Positions 1-60,539 of a stretch of DNA of 64,000 nt are shown one piece after another; the stretch's first letter is position 1, and each line of letters opens with the position of its first letter. Source of the DNA: a plasmid. The notes below the pieces were generated by a model. The model was not told where the DNA came from. It ran no database searches and saw only the letters and a program-made list of their open reading frames with translations. A program made the position numbers and the translations under genes. Location: sequence record NZ_CP092111.1; one strand, given 5' to 3'.

Positions 1-13
1 GAAGGAATATCTC

Positions 14-1669
14 ATGGAGATAAAATATAAAGTTTTACACCTTTTTTGCGGGATTGGCGGTGGCGCATTAGGATTTGACAATGCAAAAGGGGAATATAGA
101 GGGGTTAAGGGCAAATTTGAAACTATTTGTGGCATTGATGTAGATCCTGAAGCATGCGAAGATTTTCGAAATTTAACCGGGCGAAGAATTGAAAAAATGG
201 ATCTCTTCGATAGAGAACAATATATACAATTTCATGGACAGGAGCCCCCAGCTGGGTGGAAAGAGGTTACTCCAAAAATGTTAAGGGATACGGTGCATGA
301 GATACCGGACGTTGTGTTTACAAGTCCGCCGTGTAAAGGATTTAGTGGCCTGCTTCCTGAGAAGTCCGCAAAAACACAAAAATACCAGGCGTTAAACAAA
401 TTAACAGTCAGAAGTATCAAGCTAACGCTAGAGGCTTTTCAGGACGATTTGCCGGCGCTTATCCTACTTGAAAATGTTCCCCGTATTGTGAGCCGCGGAA
501 GAGCATTGCTGCGTGAAATTAAACAGCAACTAGAGTTTTTTGGCTATGTAATTAATGAAGACAAAGATAATTACCATGATTGCGGGGAAATAGGTGGGCT
601 GGCGCAACACAGAAAAAGATTCTTATTGATTGCCAGAAATCCAAATAAATTAGATTCATTTGTTTATCAGCCTCCCAAACAACCAATGAAAACAATAGGT
701 GATGTAATTGGTCCGTTGCCTTTGCCTGGAGACAAACGATTTGGCAAGATTCATGCTTTGCCAAATTTGCAATGGAAAACATGGGTGCGTCTTGCCCTTA
801 TTCCGGCTGGCGGCGACTGGCGGGATTTAGAAAAAATAGATTGGAAAAAGTACCGAATTGGATATTTACCAAGAGCCGGCTGTGGTAAAGTAGCTGAATG
901 GGATAAACCATGTGGAACTATAACCGGGGCCGCAGGTGTAAGTCAAAGTAATAGCACAACTGCAATATCAGATCCGCGGACAGGGTTTAAGTTATCGACT
1001 CATCAGGCAATATACAGGGTTCAAAAATGGGAAGATGCTGGCCGCACTGTTACCGGGGCTATGAGGCCCAATAATGGCGCTTTATGTGTAAATGATCCGC
1101 GGTTGCCTATAAGAAAAAATCGGCATGCTGCCGTTTATCAAGTGGTTAAATGGGAGCAAACGGGGCCTTGTGTGACGGGAACAAGATTTGGGAGTGGAGC
1201 TCCCGCAATTTCCGATCCGCGGTTGGATTGTAAGCCCCGAGCTGGTACGATGGGGGTTCAACGGTGGGATAAACCTTCAAAAACCGTTACCGGGGCAAAC
1301 GATGTTCATGCAGGAACTTCAGCCGTCGCAGATCCGCGCATTCCGGAAGATAATGAGACGGGTGTATTTATTATCATATCTGAAGATGGAACGTGGCACA
1401 GGCCACTAACAACCTTAGAACTTGCTGTTTTACAAGGACTCCCTACGACCTTACCAGACGGAAGACCTCTTATTCTTGCAGGGAAAAGTGATGCAAGATG
1501 GAGGGAAAGGATCGGGAATATGGTTCCGGTAGCTGCCGCACAAGCAATCGCAGAAACCATGCTTAGAACCATGCTTGCTCAAGAAGTAGGCGAATGGCTT
1601 ATGTCAGCTGAAGATATTTGGGTTGTTCCTCTGAAAAGAGAAAATGAAGTTTCTTTTCGGCAATCTTAG
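14..1669 (+). CDS. DNA (cytosine-5)-methyltransferase, orphan (no adjacent restriction enzyme); C-terminal variable region contains 4 tandem ~40-aa repeats
   Basis: C5-MTase motifs seen in translation: FCGIGG (motif I), SPPCKGFS (motif IV, catalytic Cys), ENV (motif VI), QHRKRFLLIAR (VIII), ELAVLQGLP (IX), IGNMVPV (X). Between VIII and IX are repeated modules W[DE]xxxxTVTGx(11)DPR. Confidence 0.85.
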   Translation: MEIKYKVLHLFCGIGGGALGFDNAKGEYRGVKGKFETICGIDVDPEACEDFRNLTGRRIEKMDLFDREQYIQFHGQEPPAGWKEVTPKMLRDTVHEIPDVVFTSPPCKGFSGLLPEKSAKTQKYQALNKLTVRSIKLTLEAFQDDLPALILLENVPRIVSRGRALLREIKQQLEFFGYVINEDKDNYHDCGEIGGLAQHRKRFLLIARNPNKLDSFVYQPPKQPMKTIGDVIGPLPLPGDKRFGKIHALPNLQWKTWVRLALIPAGGDWRDLEKIDWKKYRIGYLPRAGCGKVAEWDKPCGTITGAAGVSQSNSTTAISDPRTGFKLSTHQAIYRVQKWEDAGRTVTGAMRPNNGALCVNDPRLPIRKNRHAAVYQVVKWEQTGPCVTGTRFGSGAPAISDPRLDCKPRAGTMGVQRWDKPSKTVTGANDVHAGTSAVADPRIPEDNETGVFIIISEDGTWHRPLTTLELAVLQGLPTTLPDGRPLILAGKSDARWRERIGNMVPVAAAQAIAETMLRTMLAQEVGEWLMSAEDIWVVPLKRENEVSFRQS

Positions 1670-1689
1670 AGGGTAGTCAAATCGAAATT

Positions 1690-1833
1690 TTCAAAAAAAA
1701 TATATTGAATTATTAGTTTTCAATTGTTATAATAAAAACGAAAGGAGGAAAGAAAAAACTGGATCAGCTGGTAAATAAAAATCAGCCGGCATAAAGCGTA
1801 GCAATCAAAATTTCATACAAAAGGAGATTTAAA
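1690..1833 (+). promoter_or_regulatory. Strong sigmaA-type promoter (TTGAAT-17-TATAAT with TG extension) plus conserved ~100-nt leader; near-identical copy at 4425..4553
   Basis: Direct sequence comparison of 1690-1833 with 4425-4553: conserved blocks tattgaaNtattagttt..aattgttataat, ggaggNaaga, ggtaaatNaaa, ccggcataNgcgtagcNatcaaaatttcaNacaaaaggaga. Confidence 0.5.
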
Positions 1834-2181
1834 ATGGAAAAGGTCAAGGTGACAGAAATCCAGTTAACAAGGCTAGAAGGTAGGTTTGTTACGGAGGAAG
1901 ATAAGGTGGCCGTAGATACTTGGGAAAAGGCAGAACGAGTTCTAAGAGCGTGGGCTCTTACGGCTCCGAGAAATGGCGCTTATGACAAGGTGAATTTTCA
2001 TATTAAGTGGGAAGATGGCCATGAATACTCAGGACGTTTTAATTTGAAAGCGCAGCATTACAATTTGCGTAAGATCCCGCATTTAGCCAACCATGTAAGA
2101 CGGGATCTCTGGTATTTATTTGAACAATTAGAGCTAGAAGAAGCGAAGGAAATGCTGGATAAAAGCCAAATTGGAGCATAA
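1834..2181 (+). CDS. hypothetical protein (115 aa)
   Basis: ORF with SD (aaaaggagat) directly upstream; driven by the conserved leader. Confidence 0.4.
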   Translation: MEKVKVTEIQLTRLEGRFVTEEDKVAVDTWEKAERVLRAWALTAPRNGAYDKVNFHIKWEDGHEYSGRFNLKAQHYNLRKIPHLANHVRRDLWYLFEQLELEEAKEMLDKSQIGA

Positions 2182-2245
2182 GAGGGATACCCCTCTTTGC
2201 TCTCCTCAATCTTTAAAAAGGTTAAAAATAATTGGAGGGATTAAG

Positions 2246-2623
2246 ATGGAAATGACAAACCAAGAAAAACTTGATTTAATTAACAGCCTGGAGATCGTTG
2301 ACGTTGATATGGACTGTGAAGGACTTATATATGCTCATGTTGAATATTCTCCTGAAAACCTTGCTATATTGGGAAAAGTAGTTCCCAATGTAGAGGATTA
2401 TTTGGACGATTATGGAGACCCAGAACATGAAGGGGAAGTATTTGATATTTCATGGGCCGCGTTTGAATATGCAAAAGCTGATACTTTTCAACGTGAGCAA
2501 GGAAAATTCGCGATTTTTTCAAAAGAGGAAGTCATGGATATGTATGTGGAAGAACGAGAGAAGCGCCTAAATTTAGAAAGTCGATATCAAAAATTGAAGC
2601 GTCAAATTGAGGCTGTTGGGTAA
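2246..2623 (+). CDS. hypothetical acidic protein (start chosen at ATG after ggaggg SD)
   Basis: ORF, strongly acidic composition (D/E-rich), SD ggaggg 7 nt upstream of ATG 2246. Confidence 0.4.
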   Translation: MEMTNQEKLDLINSLEIVDVDMDCEGLIYAHVEYSPENLAILGKVVPNVEDYLDDYGDPEHEGEVFDISWAAFEYAKADTFQREQGKFAIFSKEEVMDMYVEEREKRLNLESRYQKLKRQIEAVG

Positions 2624-2708
2624 AAGTTTACCAGCCGCGGATTATGGAGTTTTAACCTCATGTAAGGAGGAGAATGAGTGACGATTTACCGTTCTGAGAG
2701 GTGTCAGG

Positions 2709-3167
2709 ATGAAGCACATCATAAAGTCATTGGAGAAGGCCTATAGGCTATACAAACAGCCGCATAAGATTGGCGATCTCATAGAATTTCAACAAAAACA
2801 ATGGATTATTATAGGCATTGAAGCTGTTTCGATTGACTTAAATAAACTGAGGGTTATTTACACAGTTCAAAACGCCGAAGAGGTATACGCGTATCAGCCA
2901 CCTATTTCAGACAGCGGGAAAACAGTCGAGATAATAGCTCGAGTTAGAACCGGAAAAGAGGCTATTTTAGAAAAAATACAGGTTGGTCGCTTAGTTTGGA
3001 TTGATAATAAGCCATATCAATCGGTTGGGTTTATAGATATAGATATTGAATTCACTGATGTTGTCATTACGTTTCTAGGGCGACCAGTTCGCCCTATTCC
3101 GATAAAGGAAGTAAGGGCAAAGGTGCTAAACGAGCGAAAGAAAAAGCTGAATTTACAAGTCTTGTAG
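2709..3167 (+). CDS. hypothetical protein (152 aa)
   Basis: ORF in co-directional gene string. Confidence 0.35.
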   Translation: MKHIIKSLEKAYRLYKQPHKIGDLIEFQQKQWIIIGIEAVSIDLNKLRVIYTVQNAEEVYAYQPPISDSGKTVEIIARVRTGKEAILEKIQVGRLVWIDNKPYQSVGFIDIDIEFTDVVITFLGRPVRPIPIKEVRAKVLNERKKKLNLQVL

Positions 3168-3251
3168 GGATGGTCGGTCGAAACGTAGGGGACTTCAGGT
3201 GGTTGATCATTTGAAATATGAGAATTACTATGTCATATCAGGAGGAAATTT

Positions 3252-3932
3252 ATGGCCAGGTTTGCTTTACATCCTAAAACAAATGAAAAAATATCTATAG
3301 AGGATTGGGAGTTATATCATAAAGAGGAAACACCCATATGCATTATTTGTGGACATAATTTATATGTTAGAGCAAACAGTTCCCCTGGTTCTTCAGCTCA
3401 CTTTGCTCACTATCCTGGATCTAATTGTCCATCAATTCAATATAATCGAGAAAAATATGATAGTCTCCAGCCGGTTGAAAAAGACTATCAGAATGCTAAA
3501 AAGTTAAAAAAGCATTTGATCAATAACATGTGGCCAGTTTATCAAAAATGCAAAAGCATATTTGGTCAAGGGTTTAGACAAAAAGATTTTCAAAAAATGA
3601 TTTTAAAAGCGTCTGAAAGAAGTATTTGGTTCTATAAAGGTATGACACTAAAATATTTACCGTATGTTCTGTTAGTAAACTATGGTGTTTTTCAAAAAGA
3701 GGACCATCGAAAAAATAAAGTTTATTTTGTATTTGATTCTAAACTATCAAACTATGAAGATCTGTGGATTAAGCCAAAAATAAAACAAAAAATGTGGAAG
3801 GTATACCCAGAGGAAGGTCAAATTGAGGAAGTCGAGATTGATTTCGATACTTCTTCTTTGTCACCTGAATATTTTTTGTTTTGGGCCACAGGTTTACAAG
3901 GAAAAAAAGAAAATGAATTCTTAGATTGGTAG
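3252..3932 (+). CDS. CoiA-like (competence protein CoiA family) N-terminal zinc-finger/HFAH-motif protein, short form
   Basis: N-terminus CIICGHNLYVRANSSPGSSAHFAHYPGSNC resembles the CoiA signature CxxC...HFAH...C; SD ggagga upstream. Confidence 0.45.
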   Translation: MARFALHPKTNEKISIEDWELYHKEETPICIICGHNLYVRANSSPGSSAHFAHYPGSNCPSIQYNREKYDSLQPVEKDYQNAKKLKKHLINNMWPVYQKCKSIFGQGFRQKDFQKMILKASERSIWFYKGMTLKYLPYVLLVNYGVFQKEDHRKNKVYFVFDSKLSNYEDLWIKPKIKQKMWKVYPEEGQIEEVEIDFDTSSLSPEYFLFWATGLQGKKENEFLDW

Positions 3933-3947
3933 CTAAGGAGGTGAAAA

Positions 3948-4139
3948 ATGTTAGTGGATGAATATATCAGCTTTTTAGAAAAAGCCAAAGAAAATGCACA
4001 TGGAATGAGTGCTTATCGGATATTCAGCGATTTAAAAATGGCCAAAGAACTTCAATCCAAAGGACAAAAGGAGCTTCTAGTGATTGATCCAAAAAAAGAA
4101 ATCGCGGCGGTCTTTTCTCCGATTAACAAAAATCGATAA
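3948..4139 (+). CDS. small hypothetical protein (63 aa)
   Basis: ORF with SD aaggaggtg upstream. Confidence 0.35.
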   Translation: MLVDEYISFLEKAKENAHGMSAYRIFSDLKMAKELQSKGQKELLVIDPKKEIAAVFSPINKNR

Positions 4140-4420
4140 CACTTTGCATTTACGGCCGACTATAAGAGCGTAATAGAAGATGGATTGAAACCGGCCCCGC
4201 CGCGTGCGTCAGCAGCAGGAACAATCTGGCGGGATCCCGGCGATCGCTGAAAAAACGCGAGGCGTTCATGGCCGTATACAGAAGCGTGGTAGCTGAAGAT
4301 GAACGGAAACCGGTGCTGATCGGAGAGGAGCCGGTTTTTTATGGCCAGGAATGCTCTGCCGCGGTCGTCAGCAGCAGGGTGTTCCCCGCCGTTTCAGAGA
4401 AAAGATTTTTAAAAAAACCT
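4140..4420. repeat. REP-like GC-rich palindromic element(s), family 1
   Basis: Shares gccggttttttatggccagg / gaaaacgcgaggcgttca hairpin blocks with the arrays at 10770, 11560, 15420, 36115, 45780, 52800, 53640 and 60540. Confidence 0.7.
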
Positions 4421-4424
4421 ATTG

Positions 4425-4553
4425 AAATATTAGTTTCTAATTGTTATAATGTAATCAAGGAAGGGAGGTAAGAACAAAAACGGTTAGCTTGGTAAATCAA
4501 ACTACCGGCATACGCGTAGCGATCAAAATTTCACACAAAAGGAGACATGTCGA
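4425..4553 (+). promoter_or_regulatory. Second copy of the conserved promoter-leader module (TTGAAA-17-TATAAT)
   Basis: See 1690..1833. Confidence 0.5.
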
Positions 4554-5003
4554 ATGGAACCTATTTTCGAAATTATCAGCCTCAAACAAGAAAAAAAAGA
4601 ATCAGATTTGATAGGAGCTTTTGAACAGGTTGTAGATGCTGAAGCCCTTGCGAACGTGGTTAAATACTACATCCAGAATGAAGATCGTGAGGTTTTCTTA
4701 GTTATCATTTATAACAACAAGTTGAGAATAACAGCAATTCATCGATGCAGCATTGGGGCGCTAAATGCGGCGATTGTTACTCCGAGAGAAGTGTTTAAAG
4801 CAGCGATATTGAACAATGCGGCAGCGATTGCAGTAGCTCACAACCACCCCAGTTCTGATCCTACAGCAAGCAAGGAGGATATCGAAGTAACAAAGCGGCT
4901 TCACCAAGCCGGGGACATCCTCGGCATTGAATTGCTGGATCATATCATTGTAGCTGCACACACTGACCGATACGTAAGCCTTAGAGAAAAAGGGATAATA
5001 TAA
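4554..5003 (+). CDS. RadC-like JAB/MPN domain protein
   Basis: HNHPSSDPTASKEDIEVTKRL...GIELLDHIIV: JAMM-like HxHxxxxxxxS/D motif typical of RadC/UPF0758. Confidence 0.8.
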   Translation: MEPIFEIISLKQEKKESDLIGAFEQVVDAEALANVVKYYIQNEDREVFLVIIYNNKLRITAIHRCSIGALNAAIVTPREVFKAAILNNAAAIAVAHNHPSSDPTASKEDIEVTKRLHQAGDILGIELLDHIIVAAHTDRYVSLREKGII

Positions 5004-5168
5004 AAGAAGGGGGGCTCCCCCCCCTTCTGCAAAAGAAAAAAATGATAAAGAGCAGCAAAATTGAATTTCGTTTCCTGAATTCGAATAAGAAAACCTTTTG
5101 AATAGGGGCTACTTCCTGTATAATTGATATGCACCTTCGTTTTGTGTGAACGATGGTTGCTACGCGAA

Positions 5169-5199
5169 GGCCCCGACTGATCCTCGGGGCTGTTTTTTT
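5169..5199 (+). terminator. rho-independent terminator (ggccccga...tcggggc + T7)
   Basis: Perfect GC stem followed by tgttttttt. Confidence 0.6.
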
Positions 5200-5253
5200 G
5201 TCCTCATATTGAAAAATGTGCTTTTTAAAACAAAAAAAGGGAGATGTTTTTAA

Positions 5254-5640
5254 ATGGAATTTCAATATTTGAGTCGAGAGCATAAGCAGGATTTTCTTGA
5301 AATGAGGCGGAATATTCCTGAATATTACCGTTTTAATAAGGAGTTTCTATCGGTGCTTTATTTAATCTCAGGAAATGAGGAATTAAAACAGAAAGTTGAG
5401 CCTTATTTTAATGGGAACAGCGGTATGTTTGATACGGAAAAAATGTTTGAAGAGCAAGATTTTTCAGCGGGATTAAGCATATTGGCAAAACTGGCCGTCA
5501 ATCTATTCAATGCAAATGAAAAAATTAATCCGTTGCAGCTTATGATTCTGGATGATGAAAATTTTGAGTTAGCTATGAATGCGATTATATTAAGAAGACA
5601 AGGAATTTCAACAGAATATAAATTAAGTCAAAAAAATTAG
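5254..5640 (+). CDS. hypothetical protein (128 aa)
   Basis: ORF with SD aagggag. Confidence 0.4.
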   Translation: MEFQYLSREHKQDFLEMRRNIPEYYRFNKEFLSVLYLISGNEELKQKVEPYFNGNSGMFDTEKMFEEQDFSAGLSILAKLAVNLFNANEKINPLQLMILDDENFELAMNAIILRRQGISTEYKLSQKN

Positions 5641-5645
5641 TGTAG

Positions 5646-6425
5646 GTGAATGATTTGAAAGGCATCTTTTTATTATCCGTTTCTTTATTTGAAGGGCAGC
5701 TTCAGGAGGCCCAAAATGTAGCACAATCATCCGGAGGTCTGGGCGCAGATCTTAGCCACTTCATCATGTTTGAATACAAGTTACCTAGTTCATTGGAGCC
5801 GATCCTTTCAAAATCGGATAATGATGTGTTATCAGCTGAACAACTTAGAATCAGTATAGAAGCGAGGGATCACCTTGACTCTATAATTGATAAACTCAAA
5901 AAGGAATATCCAAGATCGAGGGAAAGCTATGGTTTGAATCGCTCTTCTCTTATGAGGGATATTCTCAAGCAATTTATTTTAAAGCGACAAGATCTCGAAA
6001 AGAGGGAGGTTCACCATTCGTCTTTTTCGTTCGAAGCAGATAAGATTTCGTTTTTGCAAAGTGTTCTCCCATTCAAGGAGAGAGATCGGACTATTGAGCA
6101 CTTTATTCTTAATTCTTATGCCCCCTCTGAAACAGAACCTCCAGAGTCTCACAAGCCAAAGAACATGAGCCAGATAAGAATAAAAATGGATGTGAGAGCA
6201 TTTGAAAAGCTGGATAATATTGTTGACCAGTTTAAAGGAAAAGGTCTGACGAGAGCAGATGTAATGCGTCATGTTGTTGATCAACTTATAAAAGAATTAT
6301 CTACTACGGACAATGTTAAAGCCTTTACGGAGGAAAAATTAGATGAGGCTGTCCGGAACTTCAGAGAGGTACACGGGGCAGATAGACTAAAGGAAAAATT
6401 AACTGAATATGACAGACGGCAATAA
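5646..6425 (+). CDS. hypothetical protein with two ribbon-helix-helix-like segments (possible tandem-RHH DNA-binding protein)
   Basis: Segments RISIEARDHLDSIIDKL...SRSSLMRDIL and IRIKMDVRAFEKLDNIVDQF...TRADVMRHVVDQL have the beta-strand/helix/helix pattern of RHH (Arc/CopG) folds. This is inference from pattern only. Confidence 0.35.
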   Translation: MNDLKGIFLLSVSLFEGQLQEAQNVAQSSGGLGADLSHFIMFEYKLPSSLEPILSKSDNDVLSAEQLRISIEARDHLDSIIDKLKKEYPRSRESYGLNRSSLMRDILKQFILKRQDLEKREVHHSSFSFEADKISFLQSVLPFKERDRTIEHFILNSYAPSETEPPESHKPKNMSQIRIKMDVRAFEKLDNIVDQFKGKGLTRADVMRHVVDQLIKELSTTDNVKAFTEEKLDEAVRNFREVHGADRLKEKLTEYDRRQ

Positions 6426-6466
6426 GTAAGCAGCTTTCCGGATCCAGCTATGGAAAGGAGCCTTTT

Positions 6467-6679
6467 ATGAATATGTGTGGAATAACTGACTGGGGAAGTG
6501 CATTTTATGCTTTCGTTGAGACGACTCAAAAGCATAATTTACCCTTCCCGGAGGATGCAGCTGATTGGAGTACGGCCAAGTTGATAGCCGAAATAGAGAG
6601 GATAAACAAGGGGGAGATGGGGTTGTTAAAGAGATCCAGGCGACTGAGGCAATCCAACAGGAAGGAGAGAAAAGCATAA
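6467..6679 (+). CDS. small hypothetical protein (70 aa)
   Basis: ORF, stop overlaps start of next gene (taaaATG). Confidence 0.3.
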
Positions 6680-6680
6680 A

Positions 6681-7136
6681 ATGAAAAAGTTACTTACTGC
6701 TGTATGCACTCTTCTTCTAATTTCAATTGGAGCTTATGTAACTGGAAATTCGCCAATAGATTTACTATCGCATCACCAAAACACAACTGCAGCTGAAGAA
6801 AATTCAACCTCATATGATCAAAAGATCTATTTTCCTGCTGATAAGTACCCTGAAACCGCTAAACACATAAAAACGGCCATTAAAGAAGGCCATTCGAAAA
6901 TCTGTACAATTGATCGAGATGGTGCCGATGAAAACCGCGAGGAATCTTTGAAGGATGTCCCAACCAAAAAAGGGTATGATCGTGATGAATGGCCAATGGC
7001 AATGTGTCAGGAGGGCGGAGCCGGTGCCGATATTGAATACATAGAGCCATCAGATAACCGCGGGGCGGGATCCTGGGTTTCTCATCAGTTAGATGATTTT
7101 CCAGACGGAACTAGAGTATTATTTGTTGTGAAATAG
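6681..7136 (+). CDS. NucA/NucB-family secreted/membrane-anchored DNase
   Basis: N-terminal signal/anchor; [14 protein letters not shown]...[75 protein letters not shown] closely matches B. subtilis NucB/NucA core from memory. Confidence 0.8.
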
Positions 7137-7247
7137 ATGGAAGAGCAGCTGCTGGCATTTTATTTCGTTCGTGAGTGATCAAAGATCGGAAGATGGCCAT
7201 AATTTCTTGTTCGTGTTTGTTGAATCCAGAATCACTAAAAACAAAGG

Positions 7248-8422
7248 AGATGCTTATGGAATTTATAAAGAGCCTCTTATTCATCGTCTATGCGATCTTG
7301 CTACATGTGTATTCAAAAGATTCAGCCAGCAAACTTCAACGGCATGTCTATAATTTTTTCATCCTTGTCGCTATTGTATGGTTGATTACCTTTAGTTTTT
7401 TTCCGTATTGGAAAATGGTTATTACTTTTAGTTTTTTGGTCGTTAATATCTATGCAGTCAAGACAATATTAACAAAAATCAAAACTGGGAAATTTGTTGC
7501 CCCACCGGCTTGGATTCCCTTGATGACAGTCGCTGGCATTTGTACAGCAGGCATCATTATTCCAAGTTGGGAATCAACGCTAGTCACTGTGGCGTTTGGT
7601 GTTTTTCTATTCAGCATTCTTATCGTTTTAGAAAAGGTGCAGCAGCAGAATGAGATTTACGAAAATCGAAAATCCACTTCCGAGCTAAATGACCGGGAAA
7701 AAATAGTAGAACGGATTAAAAAAGAAAACATCATCCTTGAGCAAAAAAATTCTCATTCACCTAATCTTTATACTTTTGTTCATGAAATAAATGTGGCTGA
7801 CAACAGTGTACTTCGCAACTATATTATTGAGCCCCTTCATCCAGAAACCAGCATCAATAGACAAGCACATTCCTTAGCGCATGAGTTAGGGCATTATTAT
7901 AACTCCATCGAGAGAAAACGTTCCTTCCATAGTTTTATTTTAGATTGTCGTAAAGCGAAAAGACTGAAACCGATTTGCGGATTATTTGTTTTATACGATG
8001 AATGGAGTGCCTGGAATCGCGCAAAGCAAATCTGCCTTGAAGAAGGTGTAGACATTAGCTTTTTTCATTTTTCGAGAAAAACAGCTTTTTCAACTTATGT
8101 TAAAGCATACTGGGAGTCCATCATAAGGCCATTTAAAACATTGATAGGTACGTATATTTTTAGCGTGGCAATCGTGCTGTTTTCTGTGTTGCTAACTGAC
8201 GCAGACATTCACCTTCCTTTTAAATTAGATGCTTTGACAAATTCTATTGCAATTACAACTGATAGGACAGGAGCAGTAAATTTCATTTTCTTCATCATCA
8301 TGCAGATTCGCTTTTTGAGATGGGTGTTTGGACTGTTTTTTAAAAAATCTGTTACAGACTATCAATATGCACCAGAAGATGGTTTTGTAACAACGGGAAA
8401 TGCAAAAAAGATTAAGGACTAA
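7248..8422 (+). CDS. polytopic membrane protein with internal HELGH (HExxH) zinc-metallopeptidase-like motif
   Basis: Multiple hydrophobic helices at N and C termini; LAHELGHYYNS in the central soluble region; SD aaaggag before ATG 7248. Confidence 0.45.
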
Positions 8423-8585
8423 GAGCAATTCCTCATGATAACATAAAGGAGAATCGGACAGTCGAAAGGCAGCCGTTTTTCTTAGCCATAGGTCGCTTGC
8501 TGCGGGCGCCAGTTAAATGATTGAGAAACCTGGACATAATTAGAGGAGTTTGCACTTAGCAAGGCCTAAGATTGAATGACAGCCT

Positions 8586-8999
8586 TTGGGCTGGACCTTG
8601 AAAGGAGGTGGTTATTTGCGTATCTCCAGTGAAATTTATGTAGGTGAACCTAAAATACCGATATGGGTTAAATTCGTTATTATTTGGAATATCATTATGA
8701 TTACAGTTGGCGTGATTGTATATCAGATTGCACCTTTTAATCTTGGCCGATATATTCTGATCTATATTCTTCTTTGGTGGTTTACTGGGTTCCCATTTGT
8801 CGCTGAAAAATTTATGCATGGTTTCTCTAAAGAAGAAACACGCATTGACTCGATGTATAAGAAGAAGCTGATTAAACGTCATATCGGTGGTGAAGTTCTT
8901 TCATATGATCGGAAAGAAAAAACATATAAGGTACTAGACAGAGGGAAATTTCTGAAGGTGAAATATTATAAAGGACACTTGCTTGTGGAAGAAGATTAA
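8586..8999 (+). CDS. hypothetical membrane protein (137 aa)
   Basis: ORF with SD aaaggagg; three hydrophobic segments. Confidence 0.4.
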   Translation: MGWTLKGGGYLRISSEIYVGEPKIPIWVKFVIIWNIIMITVGVIVYQIAPFNLGRYILIYILLWWFTGFPFVAEKFMHGFSKEETRIDSMYKKKLIKRHIGGEVLSYDRKEKTYKVLDRGKFLKVKYYKGHLLVEED

Positions 9000-9056
9000 G
9001 TAAGGGTGATCCGTCGTCTTTCTTTGAATCAATTACTAATAACAAAGGAGAATATC

Positions 9057-9632
9057 ATGGAATTCACAATTTCAGAGCGTCCAAATAATATCTTTTACGG
9101 CGATATATGTAAGATTAACGGACAAGGTTGCCTGATCTTTGGTTTTGGCAAGTCAAAGGCTGCCCAAATAGCTTCCTCCGACAATATGATTGCTTATGAT
9201 ATGGCATGTCTTACAAAAGATGATGAGGGAACTTTATATGGTCACTTTGAAACCGAAATTCGAGCCAAAGGAATTAGTGATCCAATAAAAGAAAGAATTG
9301 AGATTAAACACTTTTTAAGAATGCTTGATCAGGAAGAAACAAACAAATTGCTTTGGATCAACCCTCATTTAAAGGAACTTGATAGACTAATTGAAATACC
9401 TTATGAGAACTTCATTGAAATTTCTCAATTCAATATTACTTTTACAGCCCCAGCTGATTTTCCATTTAGACCCGAAGGATTGCCTGAAATTGAAAGAGAT
9501 CCTCAAAAGAGAATAGAACACTTTATCAAGCTGTCAAAGGATTCAAATGTCCGTACTTTTGTGGTACCGTGGAGAGAAACTGTTGAGGAAAAAGCTGTAA
9601 TGATTAAAGAGGCTTTTGGTTTGCAGCCTTAA
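9057..9632 (+). CDS. hypothetical protein (191 aa)
   Basis: ORF; SD aaaggag 8 nt upstream of ATG 9057. Confidence 0.4.
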   Translation: MEFTISERPNNIFYGDICKINGQGCLIFGFGKSKAAQIASSDNMIAYDMACLTKDDEGTLYGHFETEIRAKGISDPIKERIEIKHFLRMLDQEETNKLLWINPHLKELDRLIEIPYENFIEISQFNITFTAPADFPFRPEGLPEIERDPQKRIEHFIKLSKDSNVRTFVVPWRETVEEKAVMIKEAFGLQP

Positions 9633-9660
9633 AGGATTGGAGGGATTCTGTCGCTTGTCC

Positions 9661-9795
9661 AAAAAAAGTAAGAACGCCCCAGACTCCGACATCTAGGCGT
9701 TCCTACCGTTGATTGGAATAAAAGCCGACTCCCTTACAGGAGCTATTCTATTGCCGATCGGAGATGTTAGCAGCATCTTCGATCTTTTTGTATTA
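9661..9795. repeat. Left arm of ~135-bp imperfect inverted repeat (partner 11325..11460)
   Basis: Reverse complement of 11325-11460 aligns. Conserved core: aaagccgaNctcccttacNggagc...ctattgccgatcggagatgttagcNgcatcttcgatcttttt plus the terminal gtaagaNcgcccc. Confidence 0.7.
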
Positions 9796-9962
9796 CAGTA
9801 TACTCTTATTGTATCAACGAACCTTTAAGCATGTCTATATTTATTACAGGTGTTTTCTGCTGATTGATGAGAAAATGCTGTACGTTCATAGCCGTCTATG
9901 GAAGCGTGGTAGGAGTTGATTTCCTTAGAAATGTGTTACTATCTTGGGTGAAGGTGAGGATT

Positions 9963-10397
9963 ATGAAACAAGTAAATTTATATATAAGGACTCATCAAGT
10001 AAGGAATTTAGAAAATGTAAGAATAAAATACATAGGCTGTCTGTTACTAGAATATAAGGGGAAACGTAAGTACGTGTTCATTGATAATGTGGGGGAACGT
10101 GATCAAAGGGCTTCAATGTTGAGGTTGGTATGTAGTGGACTGAAAATGTTGAAAGAACCTTGTGAGATACTGGTTTTGACGCTAAATGATATTGAAAAGA
10201 AGTGGAAGAAATATAGTGACTTATGGAATGAAGTAAATGAGCGTGTAGTTGCTGGAGGGCATGATTTAAGTTTTAAGGTCTGTAAAAATTCTGATGAGGA
10301 TACAGGAGAAGTATTCAAAATATTTAAGAGTAAGTTAGATCGTTATAAGAGGTCATATAAAAACAGGCTCAAGCTTCATTTGATGCATAGCAAATAA
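9963..10397 (+). CDS. hypothetical protein
   Basis: ORF inside the IR-flanked cassette; start chosen at ATG after aaggtgagg. Confidence 0.35.
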   Translation: MKQVNLYIRTHQVRNLENVRIKYIGCLLLEYKGKRKYVFIDNVGERDQRASMLRLVCSGLKMLKEPCEILVLTLNDIEKKWKKYSDLWNEVNERVVAGGHDLSFKVCKNSDEDTGEVFKIFKSKLDRYKRSYKNRLKLHLMHSK

Positions 10398-10496
10398 ATT
10401 CTATGTTAAGATAAAAAAAACAAAAGAGTTAAGTTTTCCATGGAAGAAGAGATGTTTTTTCATCTTGCCGATTCTATTTTTTTGTGAGGTGATTTT

Positions 10497-10748
10497 ATGG
10501 CGACTGCAGAAAGGCAAGCAAAGCAATCAGAAGTAAAAAAGAAACCTTCTCAACATAGTGTTCAGAATCAATATTTACAAAGGCATGTGGGTCATACGCT
10601 TGTATGCTTGTTAAATTCTAAAACTAAAGTGAAAGGAAAGCTTCTGGAATATGATACATACACACTGTTACTGGAAACGCCAGAAGGTGAAGAGTTTTTA
10701 GTGTTTAAACACCATATTGAGCTTATTAAAAAGATCAAGGCGGAATAA
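10497..10748 (+). CDS. hfq: Hfq-like Sm-fold RNA chaperone paralog
   Basis: LQRHVGHTLVCLLNSKTKVKGKLLEYDTYTLLLETPEGEEFLVFKHHIELI matches the Hfq Sm1/Sm2 pattern (FLN..R...V.v.L.NG..l.G.i..fD.ftvLL....q.L.yKHAIst). Confidence 0.7.
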   Translation: MATAERQAKQSEVKKKPSQHSVQNQYLQRHVGHTLVCLLNSKTKVKGKLLEYDTYTLLLETPEGEEFLVFKHHIELIKKIKAE

Positions 10749-10769
10749 AAGCCGTTTTTTTATAGTTAG

Positions 10770-11060
10770 TAAATGGCTCTCCGCGGGCGACAGCTCCAGG
10801 AGTCTGCCGGTGGCCACCGGCCATCGATGAAAAAACGCCAGGCGTTCACGGTCCGCCTTGTGGAAGCGTGGCAGCTGAATATGAAGAACAGCCGGCTTTT
10901 TTTGTGGCCAGGAAGGGCTCTCTTCGGGCGACAGTTGCAGGAATTCCGCCGGTGCCCCCGGTGATCGATGAGAAAACGCGGGGCGTTTACGGTTGCCTGC
11001 GAAGTTCAGCAGCTGAAGGTGAAAGGAAGACGGGAATACCCCGCTAGAGGCCGCCGCCAG
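10770..11060. repeat. REP-like elements, family 1
   Basis: Same family-1 hairpin blocks as 4140..4420. Confidence 0.7.
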
Positions 11061-11066
11061 TAAGGA

Positions 11067-11100
11067 AAGACCCCTGCCTCACATGAGACAGGGGTCTTAA
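11067..11100 (+). terminator. stem-loop terminator (agacccctg...caggggtct)
   Basis: 9-bp perfect stem. Confidence 0.45.
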
Positions 11101-11214
11101 ATTTCCTCAGCCGGCTGGTTTTTAGGTTCCTCGTTTTGTTCTTCTATTGGTACACTTTTTGGGGTGATTTTTGGAACATCAAATACGTCTAGCTTCTGGA
11201 CATGCTGTGATTTT

Positions 11215-11285
11215 GTTGATACAATCAATGTGTAAATGAATACAATGTATGTAAATGAATACAATGTATGTAAATGAGTATAATG
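11215..11285. repeat. tandem repeat, ~22-bp unit x3 (atgtaaatgaatacaatgt)
   Basis: Seen directly in the sequence. Confidence 0.8.
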
Positions 11286-11324
11286 TATACAAAAGAGACT
11301 ATAATAAAGAAAAAGATCGAAGAT

Positions 11325-11460
11325 GCGGCTAACATCTCCGATCGGCAATAGGAGGCTCCGGTAAGGGAGTTCGGCTTTTTCCAAAGTTTAATTTAAAGTG
11401 AGAACGTCATGATTGGTAGTCGGGGCGTCTTACTTTTTTTGTTCGAGAAACTATGGGCAA
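11325..11460. repeat. Right arm of the inverted repeat pair (partner 9661..9795)
   Basis: See 9661..9795. Confidence 0.7.
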
Positions 11461-11559
11461 GCGTCAAAATCCCAACAATCAGGATTCCAAATTGAAACAT
11501 CAATCCAAGTGCGCTTTCTACTGCCATATTCTCACTTCCCCTCTTTCTGGAGGTGACTC

Positions 11560-11900
11560 CTATCCTTTTAGGTGGGGGTTATCAATGCTCGCCAGATGAA
11601 GGAACTGACGGCGCCCTTGGCGATTGATGAGAAAACACTAGGCGTTCAGGGCCTGCCTGCAGAAGAGAACAGCTGAATGTGAACGAGAGCCGGTGCCCGT
11701 TGAAGGGCAGCCGGCTTTTTTATGGCCAAGAACGCCCTGCCGCGGTCGCCTGCTGAAGGAATCTGCCGGTGCCCCCGGTGATCGATGAGAAAACGCGGGG
11801 GGGTCAAAGTCCGTCTGTAGAAGCGAATAGCTGAATATGAACGAGAGCCGGTGCCCGCTGGAGGGCAGCCGGCTTTTTTGTGGCCAGGAACGCCTCGCCG
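11560..11900. repeat. REP-like elements, family 1
   Basis: Same family-1 hairpin blocks as 4140..4420. Confidence 0.7.
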
Positions 11901-12102
11901 TGGTCGCCAGCAGCCAGAAATCTGCTCGGTATATGCGTGTCAATAGGTGCGGGGGTGACTCACATCGCTTGCCCCGTATCTATTGGATAAGTCGACTAAT
12001 CATAATGTTTGTAAAAAAAGAGCGAATGACGGGGATTCACCTTTGATAATGTCAACTGAAAATAAAAGGTAAAGTGTCTTTACCATTGAATTATAAAATG
12101 AG

Positions 12103-12669
12103 GTGATGAACGCAATGATAAACGATAAGGAACATATGAATGAGTACGGCTATTTTGCTAAGGATGTTGCAGCCGATTTGAGTGTGACATCTTCAACACT
12201 AAGGCGGTGGTCCCTGGAGTTAGAGAAGCATGGATATGTATTTGAAAGAAATGAAAAGGAGCAGAGGATTTATTTTGAACGCGATTTTAAAACGTTCAGA
12301 GAACTTAAAAGACTTTTATCAAACTCTGTCCCGTTTGTAGACGCAATAAAAGCTGTTGCAGTAACCAAAACTGACGAGACAAACGCGTCAAGAACGCAAG
12401 GCGTTTTTTTCGATAGGCGTTTATCAGAGCAACAATTTAGAGAGATTATAAACGAAGAAGTAAAGGCAGCTATGGCGGAAGAGAGAGAAATGATGTTTCG
12501 AGCATTTGAAAAGAAGTTAGATAACATTATCGAACGTCGGGACCGTTCCCTAATGCATGAGATTCGAAAAAATAGAGAAAGGCAGCTTCTTGAAACGGCA
12601 GCTACTGTGGAGACTCCAAGTAAGTCTGCAGAGAAAAAGTCTTTTTGGAGGCGTATATTTTACAAATAA
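12103..12669 (+). CDS. MerR/excisionase-type HTH DNA-binding protein; paralog of 14783..15343
   Basis: YGYFAKDVAADLSVTSSTLRRWSLELEKHGYVFERNEKEQRIYFERD is HTH-like; the N-terminal 100 aa are about 55% identical to the other copy. Confidence 0.55.
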   Translation: MMNAMINDKEHMNEYGYFAKDVAADLSVTSSTLRRWSLELEKHGYVFERNEKEQRIYFERDFKTFRELKRLLSNSVPFVDAIKAVAVTKTDETNASRTQGVFFDRRLSEQQFREIINEEVKAAMAEEREMMFRAFEKKLDNIIERRDRSLMHEIRKNRERQLLETAATVETPSKSAEKKSFWRRIFYK

Positions 12670-12898
12670 GAGTATGGTCAAGAAAAAAAGCCCCAGAGGG
12701 CTTTTAATCTTCAGTGAAATTTTTAGATGAGAATGCTTGCCCGAATTGTGGCAACTTCTTTTTGGGTGATTTCTTTTGATTCTTTGTTGTTTTTGATGAT
12801 TTTTTATTTACTTGGTTATCAGTTGTTTTAGTTTTTGGAGAGGAAGACTCCATACCAGCATTTTTTACGTATTCATGCAGTACGTGGCGTACAAAGCC

Positions 12899-13927
12899 TC
12901 ATTCAAATACTAAAGACTTTGCGGTTTGAACGAGGCTGCTTATCCCTCTACTATCTGTCAAAGTGAATGGTTTTTCATACTTTTTTGCAAATTCTTTTGC
13001 TTTTTCTGCTGTGGGATGATTGATGTTTAATTTCATAGTGATTAACATGTCACAACTTTTAACCATACTTTCAAGCCGTTTGGTATTTTCATTGCCGTAA
13101 GCATGGATAAGCACTCCTCCGACACTCGTTATTGCTTTTTCAAATTCACTCGTTCTGGTACCACCTAACACTAGTACCTTTTTTCCGTTCAATTCATTTG
13201 TTATTGTGGTATCTAATTTAGGATTTTTAGTTTTATAATGGGAAGAAGGAGAAGGTGGAGCATGTTTGATTTCATCCGTATTATGTTTCCATATCACTTT
13301 GAACACATCTACATTGTCACTGTAATAAGCTATATCAACAACTGAACCGATCTCAAGATCCTCCCTTGTTCTTGTATCGTCATTGATAAGAAAAGTATGT
13401 GGTGCATCATTATATTTTATGGATTTGATTTTTCCATCGTTATCTAAGTATTCAGAGGCAACTAGCATAGAATCGCGATTTGATAGAACACAATAATTTA
13501 ATTGAATTCGGTTTGTTTGCTTGCGTTTTTTGGCCTTTTCTATTAACTCAAAATAAAATTTTTCGTTTCCTAAATGGACTGCTGAAATTAAATCTCCATC
13601 TTCAAATTGTTGTTTTCGTATAATGTTTTCGGGAACATATAAATTAATCTCTTCTATAATTCCTCCTTTTAAAAGTCTTTTAAATTCATAACAATTTATC
13701 TGTTTTGCTTTTTCGTCTGTCTCTTCTAGTTGAATATGTTCCACATCATTTTTTGAGCATGGTTCTAATTCATGTGAAACCGATACTTTTAAAGCAGCTA
13801 AGCTCTTAATAAAATGAAAATAGGTGGATAATTCACCTTCAATTTCTTCCACGTTGTCCAGTGTCAGTTTTTGAATTATCTTTCCCATCTCACAAACGGC
13901 TTCCTGAGCTATATTTTGTCTGTTCAT
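12899..13927 (-). CDS. hypothetical protein with C-terminal DUF2325-like domain; paralog of 63126..63986
   Basis: C-terminus KKVLVLGGTRTSEFEKAITSVGGVLIHAYGNENTKRLESMVKSCDMLITMKLNINHPTAEKAKEFAKKYEKPF recalls the DUF2325 pattern. Family assignment is from memory. Confidence 0.45.
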   Translation of the reverse strand: MNRQNIAQEAVCEMGKIIQKLTLDNVEEIEGELSTYFHFIKSLAALKVSVSHELEPCSKNDVEHIQLEETDEKAKQINCYEFKRLLKGGIIEEINLYVPENIIRKQQFEDGDLISAVHLGNEKFYFELIEKAKKRKQTNRIQLNYCVLSNRDSMLVASEYLDNDGKIKSIKYNDAPHTFLINDDTRTREDLEIGSVVDIAYYSDNVDVFKVIWKHNTDEIKHAPPSPSSHYKTKNPKLDTTITNELNGKKVLVLGGTRTSEFEKAITSVGGVLIHAYGNENTKRLESMVKSCDMLITMKLNINHPTAEKAKEFAKKYEKPFTLTDSRGISSLVQTAKSLVFE

Positions 13928-15419: not shown

Positions 15420-16210
15420 AAAGAAAACGCCCCCCGTTTACGGGGCGATCGGGAAAGCACTGGCAGCGCCGCGCCATGAAATCTCTGCGGCTCATTGAAG
15501 CTGCGGGGCAGCCGGATTCCGGAGCCGGCCAGGCGCTGGCTTTTTTGTGGGCAGGGCAGGCAACGGGCTGCCCTGGCTGCAGCTGAAGGAGATCCGCGGC
15601 TGTCGGTTCCGATGTGGCGCCGGCAGGAGAGCATCTAAGGCGAGAACGCCCCGCGTTTACGAAGCGATCGGGAATGTACCGGCAGCGCCGCGCCGTGAAA
15701 TCTCCGCGGCTCATTGAAGCTGCGGGGCAACCGGATTCCGGAGCCGGCCAGGCGCTGGCTTTTTTGTGGGCAGGGCAGGCAACGGGCCGCTCTGGCTGCA
15801 GCTGAAGGAGATCCGCGGCTGTCGGTTCCGATGTGGCGCCGGCAGGAGAGCATCTAAGGCGAGAACGCCCCGCGTTTACGAAGCGATCGGGAATGTACCG
15901 GCAGCGCCGCGTCGTGAAATCTCCGCGGCTCATCAAAGCTGCGGGCAACCGGATTCGGGAACCGCCCAGGCGCCGACAGGAGAGCATCTGAAGGCGAAAA
16001 CACCCCGCGTTTACGGAGCGATCAGGGCTGCATCAGAGCGCGCCGCGCCGTAAAATCTCCGCGGCTCATTGAAGCTGCGGGGCAGCCGGATTCCGGAGCC
16101 GGCCAGGCACTGGCTTTTTTGTGGGCAGGGCAGGCAACGGGCTGCCCTGGCTGCGGCTGAAGGAGATCCGCGGCCGTCGGTCCTGATACGGCGCCGGCAG
16201 GACGGGATTA
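15420..16210. repeat. REP-like array, family 1, ~220-bp period, about 3.5 units
   Basis: The block gagaacgccccgcgtttacg recurs at 15641, 15861 and 15986; gccggcttttttgtgggcagggcaggcaacggg recurs likewise. Confidence 0.8.
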
Positions 16211-22300: not shown

Positions 22301-22378
22301 ATATGGATCTGATCTTTGATAATTGAATATCTCTCTTTTGCTTTTGTTTCTTCTGATGTAAGGAGGCAATGTTTTTTG

Positions 22379-25204: not shown

Positions 25205-25224
25205 AGAAGAAAAGGTGATTTGAG

Positions 25225-26127
25225 TTGGACATTATTACTACACAACCTGATACAATCCCTGAAAAAAAGAAAAAGGGGAAAAAAATGAAGCAAAAAAGAT
25301 ATGCCGTTTTATCGGAAAGTGACAAAAACTTGCTTCTGTCCCTTCATCAATTCATATATATGGACACTGATTTTATACATCAATATATCATGACAGACTA
25401 CCCTACAAAAAAAACCCTAACTCAAAGGTTATTAAGGTTAAAAGATGTGGGATATTTAGTAAGTTTCACCGTCCCGATTGATGGGATGTCCAGGCCGGCT
25501 AACATCTACACTCTTACTGATTTTGGTTTGCAAAATGTTGAGCAATTGCAAGGTGTTGTTAAATGGAATCCGAGGTGGTCCCAAAGGGTGCCACCTTGGT
25601 ATCAACATCAATTAATGCTGAACCGAATTGTTATGAAATACACTAAACAAGCTGAACAAATTGGATTAGAAGTTAAAGAGTGGATACCAGAGGCTAGAGC
25701 AACCTGGCAATATACAAATGATAAAACGGATGTAATAAAGCCTGATGGAATATTGGTTTTTGGCGGGAAAGGGTCTAATGATAACATTGGGCTTTTTATG
25801 GAGCTGGAACGTAGTGTTGCAAAAAGGCAAAATACAATAAAAAAAGTGATCCGATATAATGATTTTTTGAATAGAGACAAGAAGATTTTAAAAGACTATG
25901 ATATGCATGTGGGGTTTGAAGCTCCTATTTCAGACTGGAGAGTCCTGTTTATTGGTGGGAATGAACCTAATACTAGGAAAACAATAAATGATATTTTGAG
26001 TATTCATAACATGGACATTAAAGCCCCAATATTAGTCGCAAGTAAAGCAGATGTTGAAAGGCATGCATTTGATCCGATATATCATCACATTTTGAGTGAT
26101 GATCCAATGATAAAAAAAGAATTATAG
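25225..26127 (+). CDS. putative winged-helix DNA-binding protein (possible replication-relaxation family / relaxosome accessory)
   Basis: TQRLLRLKDVGYLVSF is wHTH-like; position between the T4CP and T4SS genes. Confidence 0.3.
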   Translation: MDIITTQPDTIPEKKKKGKKMKQKRYAVLSESDKNLLLSLHQFIYMDTDFIHQYIMTDYPTKKTLTQRLLRLKDVGYLVSFTVPIDGMSRPANIYTLTDFGLQNVEQLQGVVKWNPRWSQRVPPWYQHQLMLNRIVMKYTKQAEQIGLEVKEWIPEARATWQYTNDKTDVIKPDGILVFGGKGSNDNIGLFMELERSVAKRQNTIKKVIRYNDFLNRDKKILKDYDMHVGFEAPISDWRVLFIGGNEPNTRKTINDILSIHNMDIKAPILVASKADVERHAFDPIYHHILSDDPMIKKEL

Positions 26128-26137
26128 GGAGGTCTCA

Positions 26138-26362
26138 GTGTATATGTTTCGCGGAATTTTTAAAGCGCTCATATATATTGCAGGAATTTGTTTTGTGGGA
26201 AGTTTCATTCTCACTCAATTTCCAGGGACCAGAGATGTTTGGGAGACTGTCAAAGTACAGGGCTCCCATTTTTATTCTCAATTGGTCGCAAAATATGGCT
26301 TGCTTGGAGCTTTAATTATAATCGCTTGCGCAATATTTATATTTTCAGGAAAGAAGAGGTGA
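26138..26362 (+). CDS. small membrane protein (2 TM)
   Basis: Hydrophobic helices; T4SS operon context. Confidence 0.4.
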   Translation: MYMFRGIFKALIYIAGICFVGSFILTQFPGTRDVWETVKVQGSHFYSQLVAKYGLLGALIIIACAIFIFSGKKR

Positions 26363-26368
26363 AGTAAT

Positions 26369-27553: not shown

Positions 27554-27585
27554 AAGAAAATCTTAATATATTAGGAGGAATTTAT

Positions 27586-60536: not shown

Positions 60537-60539
60537 CCT

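Follow-up and report, generated by a model that had tools for sequence, protein, structure and literature searches.

Two NucA/NucB-family DNases on a mosaic Bacillus conjugative plasmid: predicted surface tethering, a candidate palindromic regulon and a plausible anti-transformation role

Introduction

What are two DNases of the NucA/NucB family doing on the same conjugative plasmid of Bacillus, and how did both genes come to be there? This question is raised by the plasmid record NZ_CP092111.1, in which we analysed a stretch of 64,000 nucleotides, hereafter the window, that carries the genes of two such enzymes, Nuc1 and Nuc2. NucA/NucB homologues are found on 93 plasmids of PLSDB and in 15 phages of Bacillus and Listeria, and the two nuc genes of the window are already annotated in RefSeq; what is new here is the mosaic account of the pair, the argument for a tethered architecture and the palindromic regulon in which Nuc2 is held. 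The explanation that we favor is that of non-specific DNases that would be tethered to the cell, brought together as a mosaic pair, lodged in plasmid islands and cutting DNA at the cell surface in a way that would limit transformation. Taken as a whole, we consider it somewhat more probable than improbable.

Two intact genes of the NucA/NucB family

A preliminary description of the window, made from the sequence alone, had placed two nuclease genes at 6681-7136 (+ strand) and 37255-37758 (- strand) and had estimated their products to be about 60% identical. Both open reading frames (ORFs) are confirmed at these positions, and BLASTP aligns the two proteins with 58% identity over their full length (E=8e-68), with the identity reaching 76.6% over the 107 residues of the catalytic domain. 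The core blocks of NucB (DRDEWPMA and a second block of 10 residues) are found in both, as had been described. In a phmmer comparison with the NucB entries of the PDB (5OMT, 6EJS and 9FJ7), Nuc1 was matched with E=1.7e-48 and Nuc2 with E=6.2e-44, over about 107 residues. The Pfam profile of the family, PF14040 (Glu-type His-Me finger), is weak for this subgroup and gives 24.8 bits for Nuc1 and 23.3 bits for Nuc2, with a gathering score of 23.8.

The active site of the B. licheniformis enzyme, BlNucB, provides the reference for a comparison residue by residue. In this protein, D93 and N117 are the metal ligands, E94 is the general base, R70, R77 and R92 contact the DNA, H53 is structural, and C66 and C100 form a disulphide (PMC5758888). 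In the alignment, H53, C66, R70, R77, R92, D93, E94, C100 and N117 (BlNucB numbering) are all kept in Nuc1 and in Nuc2, so that neither protein has lost a catalytic residue relative to characterised NucB. The position of BlNucB S108 is occupied by an aspartate in both plasmid proteins, like D102 of BsNucB. The AlphaFold2 model of Nuc2 has a predicted local distance difference test (pLDDT) score of about 85-95 in the domain, and when it was compared with the PDB by Foldseek, the NucB entries were the sole significant matches (E <= 0.001), with template modelling (TM) scores of 0.85-0.87. The ratio of non-synonymous to synonymous substitution rates (dN/dS) in the domain is 0.06-0.09 among the plasmid copies (about 0.07), with synonymous sites that are saturated, and a strong Shine-Dalgarno sequence precedes both nuc genes, that of Nuc1 being GGAAGGAGAG. 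Because the residues are conserved, the Nuc2 model resembles NucB, dN/dS is low and the Shine-Dalgarno sequences are strong, Nuc1 and Nuc2 are, on sequence grounds, intact NucA/NucB-family genes under selection. Their products would be non-specific DNases of beta-beta-alpha metal nuclease type, with a glutamate as general base.

Within the family, the domain of Nuc1 is 74% identical to that of NucA and 63% to that of B. licheniformis NucB, the corresponding values for Nuc2 being 69% and 60%. The plasmid enzymes share with the NucA of the B. subtilis NucA-Nin pair the same active-site residues and the same cysteine pair, and with NucB of B. licheniformis and B. subtilis (secreted, sporulation-associated and biofilm-dispersing; 5OMT) the fold and the catalytic machinery. 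A phylogeny meant to separate NucA from NucB left the clades unresolved, the 107-residue domain being too conserved; the closest neighbours of Nuc1 and Nuc2 in the tree are other plasmid copies and homologues from Paenibacillus and Brevibacillus, at similar distances. The NCBIfam scan returned nothing informative. Membership of an anti-phage defence system was considered as well and is rejected, as PADLOC gave 0 matches for Nuc1, Nuc2 or their operon partners.

Export, tether or release

Both proteins had initially been described as secreted enzymes with signal peptides, a claim of which one half stands. Each N-terminus begins with MKK, followed by an apolar stretch of 16-19 residues, and export of Nuc1 and Nuc2 via this predicted N-terminal hydrophobic segment is supported. 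Cleaved secretion fares less well, given a layout that resembles a NucA-like tether and the existence of lipoprotein variants. Indeed, a polar linker of 25-40 residues lies between the apolar stretch and the catalytic domain in both proteins. In B. subtilis, NucA is anchored via its N-terminal helix, with its domain outside the membrane (PMC8262900), and the plasmid enzymes appear to follow the same order, hydrophobic helix, polar linker and extracytoplasmic domain, a layout that also matches NucA of the B. subtilis group in the alignment. NucB differs from them in this respect: its mature chain begins about 2 residues ahead of the aligned domain (chain position 3 corresponds to Nuc1 residue 44), so that the linker residues of the plasmid proteins, after the hydrophobic segment, are extra. 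Such an apolar helix is present at the N-terminus of 99 of the 120 best homologues, a lipobox taking its place in at least 9, and a nuc copy on a B. altitudinis plasmid has the lipobox-like motif LLNGC; this pattern suggests a selection for tethering. Both enzymes would most likely stay on the outer face of the membrane, held in the manner of NucA by the helix and the flexible linker, and would cut double-stranded DNA at the surface of the cells that carry the plasmid.

A quite different picture would be that of a NucB-like cargo that benefits the host, freely secreted for the recycling of extracellular DNA as nutrient or for the remodelling or dispersal of biofilms, and with no link to competence or conjugation. 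The nearest solved relatives of Nuc1 and Nuc2 are biofilm-dispersing NucB enzymes (PMC5758888), secreted nucleases reclaim extracellular DNA in the biofilms of B. subtilis (PMC11458576), the hosts are biofilm-forming isolates from fermented food and compost, and both proteins have weak signal-peptidase-like sites. The helix-and-linker layout and the lipoprotein variants nevertheless favor tethering over release, and the setting of the genes is not one of metabolic cargo but that of islands of RadC, DUF3846 and methyltransferase genes that share operator-promoters. We regard this cargo role as rather unlikely, yet as a rival to be taken seriously.

Mosaic origin of the pair

The window is a sibling of the B. 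velezensis plasmid NZ_CP116015.1, with an identity above 99.5% along the greater part of the sequence and of 95.8% at 1-4378, and differs from it by the absence of an IS256-like element; relatives of the window are found in B. velezensis, B. licheniformis and B. amyloliquefaciens. Its conjugative nature, already proposed in the preliminary description, is borne out by the presence of a VirB4-like AAA_10 ATPase, a Replic_Relax protein and a wall hydrolase with SLT and NlpC/P60 domains. The two ends of the window, 61534-64000 followed by 1-12898 (about 15.4 kb), correspond to positions 22319-38035 of plasmid pTAB7A of B. licheniformis with 96-99.6% identity, and the remainder matches the B. amyloliquefaciens plasmid NZ_CP143959.1. 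In this last plasmid, a relative with a single nuc gene, the two junctions of the block are only 450 bp apart. Plasmids of the pTAB7A type have Nuc1 only, and the B. amyloliquefaciens plasmid has Nuc2 only.

The window thus has two copies because a B. amyloliquefaciens-type backbone with Nuc2 took in a pTAB7A-type block with Nuc1. In terms of events, a conjugative backbone of the B. amyloliquefaciens/velezensis type, in which Nuc2 was resident, would have recently acquired the block from a B. licheniformis plasmid of the pTAB7A type. As judged from these alignments, the lineages of Nuc1 and Nuc2 split long ago and became co-resident by a recent recombination of about 15.4 kb between plasmids. 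The pair had been described as old paralogs and not a recent duplication; the ancient split is upheld by a synonymous divergence (dS) of about 2.3, which is saturated, and a long co-residence in one element is contradicted by the mosaic and by its one-nuc parents. The same recombination also doubled the RadC/JAB, MerR and DUF2325 genes. The two DUF2325 genes, at 12899-13927 and 63126-63986 (both - strand), are 79% identical in DNA and flank the imported block; they may have supplied the homology for the recombination.

Only one other PLSDB record has two matches, that of the B. glycinifermentans plasmid NZ_MF996509.1, and it is rejected as a further case of a plasmid with a nuc pair. About 19.5 kb are repeated at both ends of the record, the same protein accessions recurring at a distance of 42 kb, which is an overlap left in the assembly. 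The true size of this plasmid appears to be about 42 kb, the record being an untrimmed circular assembly.

The search for an inhibitor

In the preliminary description, the absence of a gene for Nin, the partner of B. subtilis NucA, had been noted, and the small ORFs that flank the two nuclease genes had been put forward as possible inhibitors in its place. The absence of Nin holds: in the six-frame ORFs of the window and of related plasmids, no Nin homologue was found either by phmmer or by a hidden Markov model of 24 Nin sequences (run with --max), for which the best E was 3.5. In chromosomes, nin lies directly 3' of the nuclease gene in 24 of the 80 loci of homologues. The plasmid genes also differ from the NucA-Nin pair in that they lie in RadC/DUF3846 islands and not beside competence genes.

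The flanking ORFs themselves, at 6467-6679 (hyp70) and 36955-37170 (ORF71), are both present as described; as inhibitors, they find no support in comparison. Only six relatives of hyp70, all near-identical, were found among 5.8 billion proteins. The AlphaFold2 model of hyp70 is a two-helix hairpin, for which the best Foldseek match in the PDB has E=2.1, the Nin entry 4MQD not being among the 19 matches listed. Some relatives of hyp70 have a C-terminal tail that is frameshifted, across the stretch that overlaps the ribosome-binding site of Nuc1, and residues ~3-52 alone are conserved. The family of ORF71 has 13 representatives, and the relatives of ORF71 lie with no nuclease gene in the ~3 kb to each side. 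Moreover, hyp70, ORF71 and ORF81, the small ORF that precedes Nuc2, are mutually unrelated and none is common to the two modules, and an all-against-all BLAST of the neighbours of nuc genes on seven plasmids found a helix-turn-helix (HTH) protein as the sole shared one. The flanking ORFs are therefore rejected as conserved partners of the nucleases, being restricted to their lineages, unshared and, for ORF71, with relatives that have no nuclease gene nearby.

These results bear on the scenario of the preliminary description as a whole, that of two long-resident paralogues, each with a small flanking inhibitor that substitutes for Nin. The ancient divergence and the small ORFs that abut both genes are in its favor. 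Against it, the identity of the Nuc1 block with plasmids of another species reaches 99.6-100%, single-nuc relatives of both parents exist, hyp70 has few relatives and no significant PDB match, the relatives of ORF71 have no nuclease gene within ~3 kb, and the small ORFs show no relation with one another or with the neighbours of other nuc genes. We hold it to be the least probable of the readings considered here.

The islands and their regulation

Both nuc genes are, from their gene content, embedded in plasmid islands of RadC/JAB, DUF3846, C5-methyltransferase and HTH genes, and on other plasmids of Bacillus and Priestia too nuc adjoins RadC/JAB, DUF3846, recombinase/YueH or type IV secretion system genes. 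In its island, Nuc2 occupies the third place in the operon HTH_17-ORF81-Nuc2-ORF71. The promoter of this operon (a TTTACT-like -35 box, 17 nt, and TGtTATACT) sits inside a palindrome with arms of 18 bp, TATAACATATGCTTTAC-N5-GTAAAGCATATGTTATA, whose core is ATATGCTnTA-N7-TAnAGnATATGTTA. Five further copies precede, in this order, a hypothetical gene, the DUF3846 gene, two hypothetical genes and the second RadC/JAB gene, so that six sites are observed at 38.9-41.8 kb for 0 expected by chance. The palindrome recurs at 7 sites in the B. amyloliquefaciens plasmid (L005, 4554-8358) and at 7 sites in a 54-kb B. subtilis plasmid (L087, 1525-4798), with one site 5' of the HTH-nuc operon in each case; in the latter plasmid, the HTH_17 homologue upstream of nuc is 59% identical. 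It is absent from every other PLSDB plasmid, which makes it a three-plasmid element, and a scan of metagenomes for the operator gave 0 matches. The set looks like a repressor-controlled regulon that would include Nuc2. We propose the palindromic element as a candidate new regulon of the establishment type, of which the HTH_17 protein is likely the repressor. As the regulation of this plasmid family is so far unstudied, the six promoters would make a compact test system for zygotic induction.

The Nuc1 operon has a different organisation, with the gene order DUF6075, 259-aa ORF, hyp70 and Nuc1, and the order DUF6075-259-aa ORF-Nuc1 is kept in pTAB7A and in the B. glycinifermentans plasmid. In the same block, the promoter element TATTGAAnTATTAGTTTnnAATTGTTATAAT has 2 copies in the window and 4 in pTAB7A, one of them there 5' of a C5-methyltransferase gene. 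The 259-aa ORF has two ribbon-helix-helix-like segments, LNRSSLMRDILKQFI and LTRADVMRHVVDQLI, and no family match; it may be a DNA-binding regulator of the Nuc1 operon. The gene 3' of Nuc1 (7256-8422, + strand) encodes a multi-pass membrane protein of 388 residues with a HELGH zinc-protease motif, for which no Pfam match was found and the PADLOC matches, to RmrA and CapP, are only faint (E about 2e-3). This gene is uncoupled from the nuclease, because it is missing 3' of Nuc1 in the B. glycinifermentans plasmid.

This arrangement recalls the plasmids of the pLS20 family, which have the establishment regulons EGeRS1 and EGeRS2 and a staphylococcal-nuclease-like thermonuclease among their establishment genes (PMC8708921). 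In both cases, short operons are clustered behind a repeated regulatory sequence, with genes of the anti-restriction and methylase type, many genes without assigned function and a predicted membrane-tethered nuclease. The repeated elements of the Nuc1 and Nuc2 islands are, as opposed to this likeness, new sequence types that are unrelated to EGeRS1 and EGeRS2. In particular, a blastn search of the window with the EGeRS1-B region of pLS20 gave 0 matches, and the Reg operator TTATCCCnnTTATCCC had 0 matches in the window and in L088; regulation by EGeRS1 or EGeRS2 is rejected on these grounds. Membership of the pLS20 family is rejected as well. When core proteins of pLS20 were compared with the window by tblastn, only Rap, Rok and one local match of 48 residues (TOPRIM/DUF3991) were found, no homologue of MobL or of the CD1115-type VirD4 was found, and the pLS20-type conjugation core (MobL, CD1115-type VirD4, p028) was thus not matched. 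The conjugation module here is, unlike that of pLS20, of the Replic_Relax + AAA_10 type, and the nucleases of the window belong to a different fold family than the pLS20 thermonuclease. The gene of the latter in pLS20 (43186-43695), in the region of the establishment operons, starts with the lipobox LLSGC, because of which its product would be surface-tethered. This would amount to convergence, with a tethered nuclease present in an island of the same sort.

The regulatory likeness gives weight to another possibility, namely that the nucleases serve in establishment, with a burst of DNase upon entry into a recipient free of the repressor that would clear competing DNA or exclude its uptake. 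Nuc2 lies in a palindromic regulon of six promoters that also takes in RadC/JAB and DUF3846 genes and has an HTH protein at its head, and this architecture is analogous to that of the Reg/EGeRS2 regulon of p576, whose expression after transfer is transient (PMC8708921, PMC6294495); the lipobox thermonuclease-family gene in the establishment-gene region of pLS20 points the same way. On the other side is the lack of any sequence relation to EGeRS1 or EGeRS2, because of which transient expression after transfer can only be inferred here. An establishment function is in our opinion unlikely, though not negligible.

Role with regard to competence

We now come back to the favored explanation, in which the tethered pair would act against incoming DNA. 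The claim that the element also encodes Rok was right: the Rok-like gene at 51593-52063 has a match to the WH_Rok domain. Genes of this kind are present on 63 PLSDB plasmids, and the plasmid in question here lies outside the pLS20 family; a 2025 review cites earlier work in which homologues of rokLS20 were found on chromosomes only (PMC12378983). A Rok-like gene and nuc occur together on at least 9 other PLSDB plasmids. DNases of mobile genetic elements that block transformation are known, namely IdeA (from the integrative and conjugative element, ICE, VchInd5), SxnA (SXT), and Dns, CJE0566 and CJE1441 (integrated elements of C. jejuni), all in Gram-negative bacteria, and the 2025 review names no DNase of a Bacillus plasmid (PMC12378983). 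The present case would resemble that of IdeA, SxnA and Dns by analogy, in that it likewise has a DNase on a mobile element, a predicted export and a naturally competent host species. The same element carries another putative anti-competence factor, the Rok-like protein. The hosts of IdeA, SxnA and Dns are Gram-negative, and the plasmid enzymes are likened to them by the kind of element and of enzyme.

Because a Rok-like gene is co-resident, Nin is missing, and IdeA, SxnA and Dns offer precedents, an anti-transformation role of Nuc1 and Nuc2 is plausible by analogy. The DNases and the Rok-like repressor, without Nin, would make natural transformation less frequent and clear away extracellular DNA.

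Several observations weigh against this interpretation. The missing Nin is not special, since 56 of the 80 chromosomal loci of homologues are also without it. About 40 plasmids of the pLS20 type have Rok without any NucA/B gene. No repeated promoter element lies directly 5' of the Nuc1 operon, and the islands share no sequence with the establishment regulatory sequences studied in pLS20 or p576. Signal-peptidase sites may exist at IGA-Y in Nuc1 and at ALG-N in Nuc2 (cleavage at the hyphen) and would therefore permit a free, NucB-like secretion. Finally, chromosomal NucA promotes transformation, its nuclease activity aiding uptake (PMC8262900), so that an effect on competence, if there is one, could go either way.

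This last point leads to the opposite role, in which the plasmid copies would be NucA-like DNA-entry nucleases that raise or restore the uptake of DNA by the host. The 69-74% identity of their domains to NucA, with the same topology, and the contribution of NucA activity to uptake (PMC8262900) argue for it. The same plasmid encodes, however, a homologue of the comK repressor Rok, no nin or other com gene is linked to the nucleases, and the review of mobile genetic elements knows none that promotes host competence in this way (PMC12378983), which makes a pro-transformation role very improbable.

A broader version of the favored explanation, which we put forward tentatively and think rather unlikely, is that surface-tethered DNases are recurrent, having been recruited convergently in repressor-controlled islands of establishment or anti-defence genes, where they would be induced on entry and destroy transforming DNA: those of the NucA/B type in the window and elsewhere on Bacillus plasmids, and in pLS20 a lipoprotein of the staphylococcal nuclease type. 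If true, the ICE DNases IdeA and SxnA would thereby have their first Gram-positive counterpart, acting alongside the plasmid Rok. If the anti-transformation role of the favored explanation is right, Bacillus conjugative plasmids would have two independent anti-transformation layers, one a Rok-like repressor of comK and the other a surface DNase, and a mechanism documented for Gram-negative ICEs and prophages only would extend to Bacillus (PMC12378983). A function would also be assigned to one of the many unknown genes of plasmid establishment islands, and the poor transformability of the Bacillus strains from fermented food or used in biocontrol that carry such plasmids could be explained.

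Other features of the window

Table 1. Features of the 64,000-nucleotide window discussed in the text
Feature	Position	Strand	Description
Nuc1	6681-7136	+	151-residue NucA/NucB-family DNase; apolar helix ~4-20, linker 21-43, catalytic domain 44-151
Nuc2	37255-37758	-	167-residue NucA/NucB-family DNase; helix 2-19, helix 30-41, disordered 42-60, domain 61-167
pTAB7A-like imported block, part 1	1-12898		C5-methyltransferase, RadC/JAB1, DUF6075, Nuc1, Hfq and MerR genes
pTAB7A-like imported block, part 2	61534-64000		Rap remnant, phr, second DUF2325 gene
Promoter element TATTGAAnTATTAGTTTnnAATTGTTATAAT	4420-4450	+	5' of JAB1; second copy 1703-1733, 5' of neighbouring operon
RadC-like JAB gene 1	4554-5003	+	PF04002, E=8.6e-40
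Candidate promoter (TTGAAT-15 nt-TATAAT)	5098-5198	+	followed by GC-rich hairpin and U7 (leader/terminator); ahead of DUF6075-Nuc1 operon
DUF6075 gene	5254-5640	+	upstream gene of Nuc1 operon
259-aa ORF	5646-6425	+	upstream gene of Nuc1 operon
hyp70	6467-6679	+	ends 1 nt ahead of Nuc1 start; two-helix core and basic tail; lineage-restricted; not Nin-like
Intrinsic terminator	36850-36886	-	ends HTH-ORF81-Nuc2-ORF71 operon; dG -16.4 kcal/mol, z=-3.6
ORF71	36955-37170	-	small coiled-coil-like ORF 3' of Nuc2
ORF81	37813-38058	-	overlaps HTH gene stop; conserved only in sister plasmid L005
HTH_17 DNA-binding protein	38055-38846	-	first gene of Nuc2 operon; candidate autoregulator
Palindromic promoter-operator, copy 1	38974-39008	-	directly 5' of HTH-Nuc2 operon
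Palindromic promoter-operator, five further copies	40041-40075, 40470-40504, 41238-41272, 41410-41440, 41756-41790
DUF3846 gene	40083-40406	-	in Nuc2 island
RadC-like JAB gene 2	41843-42307	+	profile match E=1.9e-36
Rok-like protein	51593-52063	+	WH_Rok 54.6 bits (cutoff 27.6); 34% identical to Rok_LS20
Tandem-repeat arrays	15422-16203, 36207-36708, 45789-47442, 52832-53148, 53753-54835, 60537-61260 (inverted)		units of ~217-219 bp

Besides the nuclease islands, the window has six arrays of tandem repeats (Table 1), with 2-7.6 copies each and a GC content of 58-63% in a plasmid of 40% GC. On the - strand, each repeat unit has a hairpin that resembles a terminator, CGCCCCGTAAACGCGGGGCG with a T-run after it; the ORFs called inside the arrays are spurious. 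One array begins about 140 bp past the terminator of the Nuc2 operon. An Rfam scan of the window, repeat arrays included, found no families. 'Long direct repeats of unknown function' have been mentioned for plasmids of B. velezensis and B. amyloliquefaciens (PMC8557374), and the arrays of the window are probably the same elements.

A second kind of repeat, made of sequences of about 100-180 bp that are 74-83% identical, is found at 10700-12050, 62340-62750 and 4194-4378. These repeats surround a locus annotated elsewhere as a 'putative holin-like toxin', which the plasmid hfq gene (about 10497-10748) adjoins, and the locus is likely a type I toxin-antitoxin region.

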